Origin: Patescibacteria group bacterium
GTDB lineage: Bacteria; Patescibacteriota; Patescibacteriia; 2-01-FULL-39-33
Direction: 5' to 3'
NCBI GenBank assembly: GCA_038065695.1
Contig: JBBTQN010000016.1
Span: 11,738 to 75,737, forward strand
DNA length: 64,000 nucleotides
How positions within the stretch are numbered: position 1 is the first letter of the stretch; the number at the start of each line of letters is the position of its first letter. Below the pieces are notes generated by a model. That model did no database searches. It had not been told where the DNA came from and saw nothing but the letters and a program-made list of their open reading frames with translations. Made by a program: the position numbers and the translations under genes. This document shows, one piece after another, positions 16,134 to 30,054 of this stretch.

Positions 16134-16208
16134 TTGGCAGGGGCGGAAGGTGATGCTCCCTCGTCTGAGGTTTTGGAGACCTCCGTTCTACTGTTGAACT
16201 ACGCCCCC
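16134..16208 (-). tRNA. tRNA-Trp (anticodon CCA), encoded CCA; noncanonical D-loop (single G) and T-loop (AGCATCA)
   Basis: The minus strand reads GGGGGCG-TA-GTTC-AACAGTA-GAAC-G-GAGGT-CTCCAAA-ACCTC-AGAC-GAGGG-AGCATCA-CCTTC-CGCCCCT-G-CCA, and all four stems pair. Confidence 0.6.
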
Positions 16209-16238
16209 ATATATGGCCTAGGCCATATATTTCTTTAA

Positions 16239-16394
16239 TTATTTCGTTTCCTTGTGCGCCGTGTGCTTGCGGCAATGTTTGCAATATTTTTTCATTTCCA
16301 ATCGGTTCTTTAAAATCTTTTTATTTTTGCGGGAAAAATAATTGATTTTTTTGCAAACCGCGCACTCCATTTTGATTAAGTTTTCTTGGGACAT
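16239..16394 (-). CDS. rpmG: 50S ribosomal protein L33
   Basis: Reads MECAVCKKINYFSRKNKKILKNRLEMKKYCKHCRKHTAHKETK. The ORF track extends to 16445, but that would overlap tRNA-Thr, so the start is placed at the Met at 16394. Confidence 0.8.
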   Translation of the reverse strand: MSQENLIKMECAVCKKINYFSRKNKKILKNRLEMKKYCKHCRKHTAHKETK

Positions 16395-16418
16395 AAATAT
16401 TTTATTAATTATTCTGCA

Positions 16419-16490
16419 AGCCGACCGTCGGGATCGAACCGACAACCTACGGTTTACAAAACCGTTGCTCTACCATTGAGCTAGGTCGGC
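16419..16490 (-). tRNA. tRNA-Thr (anticodon TGT)
   Basis: Reads GCCGACC-TA-GCTC-AATGGTA-GAGC-A-ACGGT-TTTGTAA-ACCGT-AGGTT-GTCGG-TTCGATC-CCGAC-GGTCGGC-T. Confidence 0.85.
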
Positions 16491-16543
16491 AAATTTAATG
16501 GTGCCTTCCGGGTTGACCCAATGCGCCGTTTTTCTTTTTAATA

Positions 16544-16625
16544 TGGGCCGGGAGGGATTCGAACCCCCGAAGGCATAGCCAAGAGATTTACAGTCTCCCC
16601 CAGTTGACCACTTTGGTACCGACCC
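16544..16625 (-). tRNA. tRNA-Tyr (anticodon GTA), long variable arm
   Basis: Reads GGGTCGG...GACTGTAAATC...GGGGGTTCGAATCCCTCCCGGCCCA. Confidence 0.8.
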
Positions 16626-16626
16626 A

Positions 16627-16702
16627 TGGAGCCGTTGCGCGGATTTGAACCGCGGACCTACTCCTTACCATGGAGTTGCTCTACCAGCTGAGCTACAACG
16701 GC
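16627..16702 (-). tRNA. tRNA-Thr (anticodon GGT), encoded CCA
   Basis: Reads GCCGTTG-TA-GCTC-AGCTGGTA-GAGC-A-ACTCC-ATGGTAA-GGAGT-AGGTC-CGCGG-TTCAAAT-CCGCG-CAACGGC-T-CCA. Confidence 0.85.
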
Positions 16703-20310: not shown

Positions 20311-20420
20311 GACATTTTCAAATGTCATCCCGAGGGAGAAGTGCCGAAGGCGCGACGACCGTGGGGATCCCATGGGATTGCCACGTCGCTCCGCTTACGC
20401 TTCGCTCCTCGCAATGACGG
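20311..20420. repeat. GC-rich hairpin repeat (tgtcatcccgagggag...gggatcccatgggattgcc...cctcgcaatgacgg)
   Basis: GC-rich with perfect stems. It shares its terminus (gggattgc...cctcgcaatgac) with the element at 29221-29285. Confidence 0.65.
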
Positions 20421-27148: not shown

Positions 27149-27709
27149 TTAAAAAATTTTCAAAAGCGAATTGAAAGTCCTGATCTCTTTTTCGCCAACA
27201 TTAACGGCTAAATTATTTAATTCAATAATAAGTTGCCTTTGGGTTTTAGCGCGAATGACGGGACAATACCCCAAATGGCTCAACAGCCCAAAAAGCGACT
27301 TGTTTAGAATCAGCAAACCGTGTTTCGCGTCAGGAGCCAAAGAGAGCTCCGCCAAAAAATTATCCGCCAAGAAAAAAACTTCTTGGTCAATAAAATCATA
27401 TTTAATTAAGGCGTCTATCGCCTCCAAGAAGTAGTCGGCAATGATGATTTTTTCCAAACTGCCGGATATTTTCCGATATCTTTTGGCAATGCCCGCTCCG
27501 GCCACCCTTTTATACCGAGAGTTACCCGCCAGCATTAAATCAATAACCAAAAACGGCTCCAAATGGCCGCTCAATTTAGAAATAATTTTTTTGGCGCCTT
27601 TGGCGATGGCCGTCACCTTGCCGAGATCTCTGGTATAGACGATATACTGCCGGTCAAAATCATTGTAATGGTCGCGGCGCAGAATGATGCCAGTAGTTAA
27701 TTGAGTCAT
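27149..27709 (-). CDS. recO: DNA repair protein RecO (short form)
   Basis: Has an N-terminal OB-fold region (GIILRRDHYNDFDRQYIVYTRDLGKVTAIAKGAKK). The track start at 27745 lies in a hairpin, so the start is placed at the Met at 27709. Confidence 0.6.
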   Translation of the reverse strand: MTQLTTGIILRRDHYNDFDRQYIVYTRDLGKVTAIAKGAKKIISKLSGHLEPFLVIDLMLAGNSRYKRVAGAGIAKRYRKISGSLEKIIIADYFLEAIDALIKYDFIDQEVFFLADNFLAELSLAPDAKHGLLILNKSLFGLLSHLGYCPVIRAKTQRQLIIELNNLAVNVGEKEIRTFNSLLKIF

Positions 27710-27727
27710 TGGAAATTGTTTTATTTT

Positions 27728-27755
27728 GTAGAGACGCATTGCCATGCGTCTCTAC
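27728..27755. repeat. hairpin gtagagacgcattgccatgcgtctctac overlapping ruvX stop codon
   Basis: A perfect 10-bp stem. Member of the gtagagacgc hairpin family. Confidence 0.85.
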
Positions 27756-28132
27756 TGGCTATCCAAATAGCTTTGTAAAATAATCATGGCGGCGACGGCA
27801 TCTTCGTCTCCCTTGGGAGAGAGCCGCTTGGCATAGCGAGTAGTTAATTGTTCATCTTGGATTTCAATATTTATATTTAATGATTCTTCTAATCGACAAA
27901 TAAAATCTTGAGTTATGTCAACTTGCTCCGGAGAATGAGCTTGAGAATTAATCGGCAGGCCGACAATAATTTTTTCTATCCCCTCTTCATCGCAAATTTT
28001 TTTGAGCTCTTTAAATAAAAAATCTTTGTTCTTATTTTTTAAAATCTTAAAGGGCGTAGCCACTCGGCTTTCCGTGTCGCCAAGCGCCAAACCTACTTTT
28101 GATTTGCCGTAATCCATGCCTAATAATTTCAT
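27752..28132 (-). CDS. ruvX: Holliday junction resolvase-like RNase H-fold protein YqgF/RuvX
   Basis: Reads LGMDYGKSKVGLALGD...EKIIVGLP. Confidence 0.8.
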   Translation of the reverse strand: MKLLGMDYGKSKVGLALGDTESRVATPFKILKNKNKDFLFKELKKICDEEGIEKIIVGLPINSQAHSPEQVDITQDFICRLEESLNINIEIQDEQLTTRYAKRLSPKGDEDAVAAMIILQSYLDSQ

Positions 28133-28229
28133 AAATTAAACTTTATAAATAGTGCCAATGCTATGACTGGAAGCAACCCTTAAATTAAATCTTTGGTTTT
28201 AGTGCGGTGATTCGGGAGTGGGTATGGTT

Positions 28230-28895
28230 TTATTTGAAAATTTGCTTATCTATTTTCTTCGCTTCGCCAACAAAAAATTTTTGCCACTCGTTTGGGTTGA
28301 TTTCTTTAATCATTCTGGGATAATCCTTGACTTCTCTTACTCTTAACAATTGGCTGCCCAATTGAATCGGGTCGATGTGCCAATCAAATTTTATCTTCGC
28401 TTTTTTAATTAATCCGTCAAGCCGCCATTTTTTATCTTTAAGAATAAAATACAAATCAATAAAATCGCGCGAACGGGGATTCTGGTAGATGGTAAAAATT
28501 TTGTTGACGGCAATATCAATCAAGCTGTCAATAAAAAGCCAACTGATTTTGTTTTTCCTTTCAATCCGCGGAAAGGGGTAATAAGTGAATTCGGTCTTGA
28601 TGATTTCGCCGTTTTTAAAATGGAGAAAAAAAAGATTCCGATTGAAACTTTGCTTGAAATCAACTTTTTTAAAGCCGCATTTCTTACTGATTGATTTAAA
28701 AAAGATAAAAATCGCTTGGGAATCGACTTCTTTTTCGGAAAAAAAATCCAAATCTTCCGAAAGCCGATGATGGAGATAAAATCCCGCCAAAGCGATGCCG
28801 CCGGTCAAATAAAAATCACGGCAGATTCCGGAATTAGTGGAAACTGCCTCTAAAACTTTTTTTTGATTTTGAGTCAAGATTTTTTCCGCGGCCAT
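28230..28895 (-). CDS. nucleotidyltransferase AbiEii/AbiGii-like toxin family protein
   Basis: Reads FYLTGGIALAGFYLHHRLSEDLDFFSEKE, matching the GGTAL..HR.S.DLDFF signature of AbiEii (DUF1814) proteins. Confidence 0.6.
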   Translation of the reverse strand: MAAEKILTQNQKKVLEAVSTNSGICRDFYLTGGIALAGFYLHHRLSEDLDFFSEKEVDSQAIFIFFKSISKKCGFKKVDFKQSFNRNLFFLHFKNGEIIKTEFTYYPFPRIERKNKISWLFIDSLIDIAVNKIFTIYQNPRSRDFIDLYFILKDKKWRLDGLIKKAKIKFDWHIDPIQLGSQLLRVREVKDYPRMIKEINPNEWQKFFVGEAKKIDKQIFK

Positions 28896-29080
28896 AACAA
28901 AAATTCAAGATATTTTTTCTTTTGCGAATCAAGACGGAGGCGGGACCAATATTTTTTTAATTCCCCTTTTCTAATTTTTTCTTTATTCAAACCAAAATTA
29001 ACCATTTGTTCAAGACGCCAAATGGCGTATTGTTTCTTGTCTTTTTTTAACTCGCTGGTTTTAACTGACCAATTATACAT
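28874..29080 (-). CDS. small basic ORF overlapping the AbiEii start by 22 nt (possible cognate partner, or remnant)
   Basis: ORF only. Reads MYNWSVKTSELKKDKKQYAIWRLEQMVNFGLNKEKIRKGELKKYW. Confidence 0.3.
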   Translation of the reverse strand: MYNWSVKTSELKKDKKQYAIWRLEQMVNFGLNKEKIRKGELKKYWSRLRLDSQKKKYLEFLLWPRKKS

Positions 29081-29220
29081 ATAATTTATACCTATTTATC
29101 CATTAATTATAGCAAATTTTAAGTTAAAAATCAATAATAAAAATTTTCCAACAACGGCCAATTCCGAGACTGATTTATTGCCATTGTTTTGATTTTTAAA
29201 AAAAATGATTTGAAAAATTA

Positions 29221-29285
29221 TTCTTTTTTTTAGATGGGATTGCTTCGGTCGTCCCGCCAAGGCGGGACTCCCTCGCAATGACATT
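29221..29285. repeat. GC-rich hairpin repeat (gggattgcttcggtcgtcccgccaaggcgggactccctcgcaatgac)
   Basis: Has the stem cccgcc-aa-ggcggg and shares its termini with 20380-20420. Confidence 0.65.
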
Positions 29286-30054
29286 ATAAAATAGTTAAAA
29301 TATCCCCGCCTTTTTCGCCGACGGCGATGGTGTGTTCAAAATGCGCCGAGAGCGAGCCGTCACGAGTGACGATCGTCCAGCCGTCGTCAAGCGTTTCCAC
29401 TTCCCAAGAACCGGCATTAACCATCGGCTCAATCGCCAAAGTCATGCCTTTTTCAAGTTTAATATTTTTAAAATCGTTGCTGATATAATTCGGCACTTGC
29501 GGCTCTTCGTGGGCTTGGTAACCGACGCCATGGCCAACCAATTGCCGGACGATTGAAAAACCGTTTTTTTCAACCTGGCTTTGGATTTCTTTGGCAACAT
29601 CAAGAAGTCGGCTACCGGCTTTAGCTTTTTTAATACCCCGCCCTAGCGCTTCCTCGGTGACGGCCATCAATTTTTTCGCTTCCTTGCTCACCCGTCCGAC
29701 TGCCACCGTCCTTGCGATATCGGTATAAAAATCTTTGTATTCCAAGCCGCAATCAAGGCCGACAATGTCGCCATTTTTCAAAATCCGATTCGGCTCGGCG
29801 AGGCCATGGACCACTTCGTCATTTACGGAAACGCACAAAGCCGACGGATAGACATGTTCGGCCCAAGCCGCTTTGTAGCCCTTAAAACTCGGCCGGCCGC
29901 CTTTTTCTTTGATGAGTTTTTCCACCAAATCATTGAGTTCCTTGGTGCCCACGCCCGGCTTAATTTTTTTTATCACCAAATTCAAAATTCCGGCCAAGAT
30001 ATGGCCGCCCTCGCGCATAATTTCAATTTCTGCCGAAGTTTTTGGTTTGACCAT
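29284..30054 (-). CDS. map: type I methionine aminopeptidase
   Basis: Reads IEIMREGGHILA...VHGLAEPNRILKNGDIVGLDCG...HFEHTIAV. Confidence 0.9.
   Translation of the reverse strand: MVKPKTSAEIEIMREGGHILAGILNLVIKKIKPGVGTKELNDLVEKLIKEKGGRPSFKGYKAAWAEHVYPSALCVSVNDEVVHGLAEPNRILKNGDIVGLDCGLEYKDFYTDIARTVAVGRVSKEAKKLMAVTEEALGRGIKKAKAGSRLLDVAKEIQSQVEKNGFSIVRQLVGHGVGYQAHEEPQVPNYISNDFKNIKLEKGMTLAIEPMVNAGSWEVETLDDGWTIVTRDGSLSAHFEHTIAVGEKGGDILTIL

Follow-up and report, generated by a model that had tools for sequence, protein, structure and literature searches.

By analogy, the closest functional precedent for the locus described in this study is MenAT1 of M. tuberculosis (MenT1 Rv0078A and MenA1 Rv0078B), where a DUF1814 toxin is likewise preceded by a 68-aa all-helical partner. 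MenA1 neutralises MenT1 by binding two MenT1 molecules and inducing phosphorylation of T39; like the partner considered here, it has no recognisable DNA-binding domain, and in MenT1, too, the catalytic DxD is preceded at a distance of two residues by a Ser/Thr phosphoacceptor (PMC10435456, PMC11375011). The AbiE systems of S. agalactiae and Lactococcus, as well as MenAT3 and MenAT4, have the same PF08843 domain with motifs I-IV in a bicistronic arrangement with the partner upstream, and share the phosphoacceptor motif R-x-[ST]-x-D-x-D (PMC3985639; bioRxiv 10.64898/2026.01.19.700257). In contrast to these systems, the 68-aa partner is not a two-domain wHTH protein of COG5340, the toxin, with 221 aa, is shorter, and an inverted-repeat operator was not demonstrable.

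The closest protein in both solved structure and sequence (22% identity) is JHP933 of H. pylori J99 (PDB 4O8S/4OK0), which shares the RFSEDLDF and K...RDxxDL motifs with our toxin (PMC4125220) and differs in that it sits in a plasticity-zone ICE. The gene arrangement, in which a small ORF overlaps an AbiEii-type gene for 204-207 aa at its 5' end, recurs in the pairs of DUF6922 (PF21956) with a short AbiEii and in the 82-aa ORF with AbiEii on the plasmid ece1 of Aquifex aeolicus. Here we characterize a pair of this architecture in a 64-kb stretch of a Patescibacteria contig (hereafter, the window). By its toxin the system is of the MenAT/AbiE kind, and its partner belongs to none of the AbiEi, MenA1 and DUF6922 families. 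What is new is this partner, an undescribed and widespread family of short proteins with a putative function in toxin control.

The locus and its flanking genes

The pair lies within the minus-strand gene order rplO-secY-adk-map, pair, ruvX-recO-aspS, with all genes on the minus strand, and is separated from its neighbours by spacers of 203 nt (from map to the 68-aa ORF) and 97 nt (from the 221-aa ORF to ruvX). The same DNA is present without differences on an 86-kb contig from groundwater, whose proteins carry the label 'Patescibacteria group bacterium'. The features of the locus are collected in Table 1. An initial sequence-only reading of the window had proposed an AbiEii-like toxin gene from the FYLTGGIALAGFYLHHRLSEDLDFF signature and a small basic ORF overlapping its start; both ORFs are present as described, the small one encoding 68 aa with a pI of 10.2 and a net charge of +12.5. 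The 221-aa protein is strongly basic as well (pI 9.6).

Table 1. Features of the two-gene locus, with positions counted within the window
Feature	Position	Strand	Description or basis
Putative toxin gene	28230..28895	-	221-aa DUF1814/AbiEii nucleotidyltransferase
Small gene	28874..29080	-	68 aa, basic, four predicted helices; putative antitoxin or partner
Overlap of small gene and putative toxin gene	28874..28895	-	22 nt, read from sequence
Cassette promoter	29106..29134	-	-35 TTGATT at 29134-29129, 17-nt spacer, -10 hexamer at 29111-29106
Hairpin directly after map stop codon	29221..29285	-	Fold energy
map (methionine aminopeptidase), upstream flank	29284..30054	-	Pfam Peptidase_M24 match, identical contig
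ruvX, downstream flank	27752..28132	-	PF03652, E 2e-31
recO, after ruvX	27149..27745	-	RecO_N, E 6e-12

The GC-rich element noticed earlier after map is real; it forms an imperfect hairpin (folding energy -27 kcal/mol; z = -4.1 relative to shuffled sequences) and is not a direct repeat. The element is of a GTCATTGCGAGG...GCAATCCCAT repeat type, a second copy of which was found by pattern search at about 20330-20418. Other loci show no conservation of such a hairpin ahead of the pair, and the element is probably a neighbour of the cassette and not part of it. An Rfam search of positions 27500-29800 yielded nothing credible.

A DUF1814 nucleotidyltransferase

The profile search that had been suggested as a check on the 221-aa ORF identified PF08843 at residues 20-206 with 53.9 bits (cut-off 22.5; E 3.1e-14), and 16 AbiEii models of PADLOC match the same protein. 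Motifs I and II of the AbiEii/DUF1814 proteins have the form hG[GS]-x(~15)-DhD with a conserved Arg, motif III is K...R, and motif IV is +DxxD (PMC3985639). All four are complete in the toxin, as G32-G33, R44-x-S46-E-D48-L-D50, E102, K132...R141, and R143-D144-F-I-D147, and no variation is seen at the motif residues among 35 aligned sequences; RxSEDLD is found in 56 of the 56 toxins extracted from related loci. The AF2 model is confident (pLDDT 91.8) and predicts the bi-lobed fold of the family, in which a pol-beta-like beta-sheet domain is followed by a C-terminal helical bundle. Foldseek comparison of this model with the PDB retrieved JHP933 (4.7e-9), MenT3/TglT (1e-5), and MenT1 (1.4e-4), and a PDB profile search with the toxin retrieved JHP933 (E 1e-4). 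The ORF is thus a nucleotidyltransferase of the known DUF1814/AbiEii kind, for which toxicity and a tRNA target are suggested by analogy with the characterised members.

In AbiEii the phosphoacceptor is Thr65, and its structural equivalents are S78 in MenT3 and T39 in MenT1 (bioRxiv 10.64898/2026.01.19.700257; PMC11375011). The segment R44-L-S46-E-D48-x-D50 aligns by direct sequence spacing with R63/T65/D67/D69 of AbiEii, while the correspondence of Ser46 to S78 of MenT3 and T39 of MenT1 comes only through the structural equivalence given in the preprint (bioRxiv 10.64898/2026.01.19.700257). Ser46 is invariant in the 35 aligned and the 56 extracted toxins. It stands two positions ahead of the first catalytic Asp, as in type VII-like systems, which makes it a candidate phosphoacceptor.

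The window's own copy has two unusual residues just past the GG motif. Among the 35 plus 56 sequences Ile34 occurs in this toxin only, with Thr in 90 of 91 others, and Gly38 is a rare replacement of the Glu found in the family. Because of these two substitutions, this particular copy may be attenuated.

An undescribed family of small proteins

Searches with the small protein collected 511 homologues at E <= 0.01, mostly of 64-68 aa and with 60-85% identity. They come from many lineages of Patescibacteria, namely from the Magasanik-, Falkow-, Kuenen-, Moran-, Gribaldo-, Jackson-, and Kerfeld- candidate groups, and further from the Roizman-, Woese-, Levy-, Peregrini-, Uhr-, and other candidate groups. 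An exhaustive profile search of 1.8 billion representatives gave 229 clusters, nearly all of them stand-alone proteins of 60-100 aa. The alignment contains 16 invariant columns, the codon-position variation of the gene has a coding pattern (0.89/0.56/1.30 bits), and none of the 78 copies has an internal stop. The small ORF is therefore a real, strongly conserved gene, having passed the two tests, conservation and coding signal, on which the sequence-only reading had made it depend.

The predicted structure has four helices and no strands, hence no wing, at moderate confidence (AF2, pLDDT 79), so that the winged helix-turn-helix for which a check had been proposed does not appear. Pfam, NCBIfam, and PADLOC contain no match to the protein, a profile search against every PDB chain gave nothing either, and none of the Pfam families was matched consistently by 109 diverse relatives. 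Two origins had been envisaged for this ORF, a novel short partner and a remnant of a truncated gene, and the first of them stands. That it is a degraded canonical AbiEi (COG5340), or merely a chance ORF, is suggested by its short length only, and we give this explanation a negligible probability: the length of 66-68 aa is kept in more than 500 clusters together with the 16 invariant residues, the coding signature is clear, no beta strands are predicted, and no similarity to AbiEi was found with Pfam and PADLOC at E <= 1.

Relationships to other short partners were also considered. No homology with MenA1 was found in sequence or in fold. A resemblance by eye to DUF6922 in a W..D...G motif was rejected, as hhalign gave about 1% and 0 of the 109 relatives matched PF21956 (E <= 1); a relation to the 82-aa protein of Aquifex ece1 was rejected in the same way (hhalign 0.6%). 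Overall, the profile-profile comparison of the three small-partner families (68-aa, DUF6922, and the 82-aa ece1 protein) showed no relation, at about 1% or less, and no mention of DUF6922 or of the 68-aa partner family was found in the literature searched.

The absence of a detectable relation to the known antitoxins AbiEi, MenA1, and DUF6922 speaks against an antitoxin role of the small protein, as does the strongly basic character of both proteins, which is unusual for an antitoxin masking an RNA-binding cleft. Instead of being an antitoxin, the small protein could bind nucleic acids in an accessory role, as a transcriptional regulator of the operon or as a subunit that targets the enzyme to RNA or another substrate; we regard this as unlikely.

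Promoter and gene overlap

The pair has a promoter of its own. In the window, TTGATT is followed after a 17-nt spacer by the extended -10 element TGnTATAAT, with 10 of 12 consensus matches in addition to the TG before the -10. In the related loci, conservation upstream of the small gene begins about 45 nt before its ATG and corresponds to TTGAyT-17-(TGn)TATAAT, and TTGAyT-17-TATAAT can be made out in 55 of 79 loci. The distance from the end of the -10 to the ATG is 5-9 nt in 42 of these 55 loci (6 nt in 27), a geometry found for 6% of the other long ORFs in the loci and for 2 of 68 window genes. With the -10 element so close to the start codon, the mRNA of most loci would have no leader or almost none. 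The window itself, where the -10 ends 25 nt before the ATG, is an exception. No palindromic operator for autoregulation could be made out in the promoter spacer, where the best inverted repeat averages 3.77 nt, compared with 3.43 in shuffles; this counts against a toxin-antitoxin role.

Among 80 species-level loci, fetched by means of the small gene, an intact toxin follows immediately downstream in 57, the toxin ATG typically being at nt +186 of the small gene; over these 57 loci the overlap is 8-25 nt, most overlaps measuring 19 or 22 nt. For the window pair, the toxin ATG lies across two codons of the small gene (TTA TGG), its A closing the Leu62 codon and its TG opening that of the invariant Trp63, and no Shine-Dalgarno sequence is visible before it. 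Judging from this arrangement, translational coupling of the toxin to the small gene would be the natural reading.

Conservation and decay of the pair

A scan of 185,579 genomes, one per species, found relatives of the small gene in 245 of them. Some taxonomic labels of the metagenome-assembled genomes (Gammaproteobacteria, Planctomycetota) are probably artefacts of binning or naming. In one case, two loci (L043 and L044) have the same match coordinates, identities, and upstream sequence, yet are assigned to two different bins. In look-ups that started from the toxin, the small ORF was present upstream in 4 of 4 cases, in each of them uncalled by the gene caller of the assembly.

The two genes of the pair are lost unequally. 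In 12 of 77 loci the toxin beside an intact small gene is frameshifted, truncated, or internally deleted, and in another 8 an intact small gene is followed by unrelated genes and no toxin. The representative library moreover contains two deletion fusions (P0193 and P0246), in which motif I of the nucleotidyltransferase is lost. Retention of the upstream gene after loss of the toxin is expected if the upstream gene encodes the antitoxin. The observed asymmetry, with 20 of 77 loci keeping the small gene where the toxin is decayed or absent, fits this expectation, although the toxin-first sample is small (n = 4) and the reverse loss may also occur. On the other side, the orphan small genes could also reflect an independent function of the small protein.

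Mobility of the pair and the operon break

Grouped by similarity, the 106 genes that lie closest to the intact pairs make up 100 clusters, so that the pair is differently placed in almost every genome; for example, it is found between uvrB and uvrA in locus L004, and between tRNA-Lys and aspS in L019. In locus L038 from Magasanikiibacteriota, the genes adk, map, ruvX, and recO directly follow one another, map and ruvX being 12 nt apart with no pair between them, and the pair starts 2,517 nt downstream of the map stop codon, past recO, tRNA-Asn, and another gene. Between the window and L038 the two proteins of the pair are 65% and 59% identical, in contrast to 27-44% for adk, map, ruvX, and recO, which points to horizontal transfer. 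The pair is a horizontally mobile cassette with its own promoter. A metagenome scan with RuvX for close relatives lacking the insertion returned only three loci, at 44% identity, and the empty site was found in L038 instead of in a close relative.

The same locus clarifies the relation of the pair to the break in the spc/alpha operon. It had been noted that infA-rpmJ-rpsM-rpsK-rpoA-rplQ are missing after map, and indeed tblastn with the E. coli InfA, RpmJ, RpsM, RpsK, RpsD, RpoA, and RplQ found none of them in the 64-kb window. A link between this truncation and the pair does not hold. As map, ruvX, and recO are adjacent in L038 without the pair, the break is unrelated to the insertion, a feature of the lineage that predates it and not its consequence.

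Neither an integrase nor a consistent tRNA association of the pair was found. Three candidate vehicles or signals of transfer were considered and rejected. Terminal inverted repeats are at chance level: the window has a 19-nt pair at 28228-28246/29111-29129 with 84% complementarity, and the average over 58 loci is 6.48, compared with 6.34 in shuffles. Carriage by phages or plasmids is not indicated, as the toxin profile has no IMG/VR match and the small protein has no phage or plasmid match. Finally, targeted insertion at tRNA genes does not account for the sites, tRNAs being located within about 80 nt in only 3 of 16 scanned loci; two tRNAs lie about 290 nt upstream of the pair in L021, and the window's own tRNAs, covered by a separate scan, are more than 11 kb away.

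These observations bear on whether the pair might be a non-toxic housekeeping enzyme with a small subunit, for example for tailing or repair of RNA 3' ends, that is inherited vertically under purifying selection. The sequence conservation across distant lineages is unusually high, and NCBIfam has no model assigning the toxin a specific function. Identity of 60-75% across distant lineages of Patescibacteria is high for a toxin-antitoxin pair, and could instead reflect a conserved cellular role. However, a vertically inherited enzyme is at odds with the patchy distribution (245 hits in 185,579 species genomes), with a genomic context that is different almost everywhere, with a module far more alike between genomes than the adjacent housekeeping genes, and with an enzyme so often pseudogenised (12 of 77 loci). 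We therefore consider the housekeeping role improbable.

Discussion

The co-oriented overlapping genes, the own promoter, the patchy distribution, and the variable context of the pair are all generic features of toxin-antitoxin systems. Taken with the identity, motifs, and predicted fold of the toxin, the conserved geometry of the pair, its mobility, and its asymmetric decay, they lead us to favour, with a probability of roughly two in three (0.68), an autonomous mobile two-gene cassette of the toxin-antitoxin type, about 0.95 kb long, in which the 68-aa protein is the cognate antitoxin. According to this explanation, a cassette with its own promoter was inserted between map and ruvX, and a single transcript with a short leader or none would serve for both proteins. 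The start of the toxin being embedded in the Leu62-Trp63 codons, toxin synthesis would depend on translation of the antitoxin. The toxin, by analogy with MenT1, MenT3, MenT4, and AbiEii, would extend tRNA 3' ends with nucleotides and so block translation. The 68-aa protein would neutralise it, most likely by direct binding and possibly with induced auto-phosphorylation of Ser46.

The same biochemistry may have been selected for a different role, the killing or arrest of infected cells, and the pair would then be a module of abortive infection or phage defence in the strict sense and not a selfish addiction cassette. This role is compatible with the main explanation and does not exclude it; we regard it as possible, though clearly less probable than not. 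The family name and the PADLOC AbiEii models agree with it, and AbiE is known to confer phage resistance in Lactococcus (PMC3985639). The surroundings of some pairs also resemble those of defence genes: a second short AbiEii pair, with DUF6922 as the small partner, immediately follows the studied pair in L039 and L055, and in L090 the pair is followed by a DUF2283 gene and an MNT/HEPN-type pair in a layout reminiscent of defence islands. However, the window pair stands alone between housekeeping genes, no phage context was seen and no match was found in IMG/VR or INPHARED, and AbiE of S. agalactiae is reported to have had no anti-phage phenotype under the conditions tested (bioRxiv 10.64898/2026.01.19.700257).

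Returning to the toxin-antitoxin cassette, a more specific and tentative version of it can be put forward, for which the odds are well below even. The small proteins may constitute a new, Patescibacteria-specific antitoxin family, with a fold that no solved structure resembles, that triggers auto-phosphorylation of Ser46, the leaderless cassette spreading between distant lineages of Patescibacteria without a recognisable mobility gene or terminal repeats. If true, this would add a third solution of independent origin to those of MenA1 and AbiEi/MenA3.

Toxins of the DUF1814 (MenT/AbiEii) group attract active research as growth inhibitors that modify tRNA, and their unrelated antitoxins appear to converge on induced auto-phosphorylation. 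A third sequence-unrelated family of short partners would test the generality of this mechanism, and the family described here, whose compact and abundant members form more than 500 sequence clusters under strong conservation, is a tractable case for such a test. As the small gene was uncalled in all four toxin-side assemblies, toxins of this kind look like orphans in genome annotation and in defence surveys. Finally, gene flow and the defence repertoire are poorly known in Patescibacteria, and the cassette would be one of the few mobile elements that can be traced across this group.

Substitutions beside the nucleotidyltransferase motif

The toxin encoded in the window reads GGIALAG where 42 of the 56 toxins extracted from related loci have GGTALAE. 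Position 34 is occupied by Thr in all 90 other sequences compared, Ile being found in the window copy only, while position 38 is more variable, with Glu in the majority of the sequences compared and Gly or another residue in a minority. Both Ile34 and Gly38 adjoin NTase motif I, and each differs by a single transition. Judged from these two residues, the toxin copy in the window may be attenuated.

Further module copies and other gene pairs

One Wildermuthbacteria contig (L063) carries the module of small gene and toxin gene twice (see table); its second copy is strongly diverged, with 35% and 39% identity to the window proteins. At two other loci (L039 and L055), the pair is followed directly by a second, unrelated one, in which a DUF6922 protein gene of 88-122 aa overlaps an AbiEii-type gene of 204-207 aa; two TA modules are in tandem there. 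DUF6922 is apparently a family of partners for short AbiEii genes, as yet uncharacterised, and goes unmentioned in the literature searched. In L090, one of the loci looked up from the toxin side, the genes downstream of the pair resemble a small TA or defence cluster. A pair of identical architecture, from a distant phylum, is present on the Aquifex aeolicus plasmid ece1, where 65 nt of overlap join the small ORF to the start of the AbiEii-family gene. Near this pair are a CopG gene as well as AbrB/PIN genes.

Location of the features described in the text
Feature	Source	Coordinates	Strand
Toxin codon 34 (Ile)	window	28794-28796	minus
Toxin codon 38 (Gly)	window	28782-28784	minus
Hairpin-forming repeat (GTCATTGCGAGG ... 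GCAATCCCAT), two copies, each just 3' of a gene	window	29221-29285; ~20330-20418	minus
Perfect 12-nt inverted repeat (GTAGAGACGCAT / ATGCGTCTCTAC), arms 4 nt apart, covering the ruvX stop and recO start codon	window	27728-27755	
tRNA cluster (Trp, Thr, Tyr, Thr)	window	16135-16702	minus
Module, two copies	L063	599-1419; 3577-4264	
DUF6922 (PF21956) + AbiEii-type gene	L039	4861-5797	
DUF6922 (PF21956) + AbiEii-type gene	L055	4861-5722	
DUF2283 gene, then NTase_sub_bind (HEPN-like) + NTP_transf_2 (MNT) domain pair	L090	3440-4408	
82-aa hypothetical ORF + 206-aa AbiEii-family gene	L093 (ece1, NC_001880.1)	1320-2124	

Repeats and tRNA genes in the window

The hairpin located 3' of map has a predicted energy of -27 kcal/mol (z = -4.1); no U-run follows it, and a classic intrinsic terminator is therefore ruled out. 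A hairpin formed by the perfect inverted repeat at the ruvX-recO junction could occlude the recO start. In the cluster of four tRNA genes, no spacer separates tRNA-Tyr from tRNA-Thr(GGT).

Taxon labels and annotation

Match coordinates, identities and upstream sequence of loci L043 and L044 were identical in every comparison made, and their contigs sit in two differently named bins (Patescibacteria and Planctomycetota). Several further loci carry the name Gammaproteobacteria or Planctomycetales. Such labels, Planctomycetota included, are probably binning or naming artefacts. Finally, in all four assemblies reached by toxin-first look-ups (L089-L092), the small gene is intact upstream of the toxin gene, yet uncalled by gene finders, so that these toxins seem orphans in the annotation.
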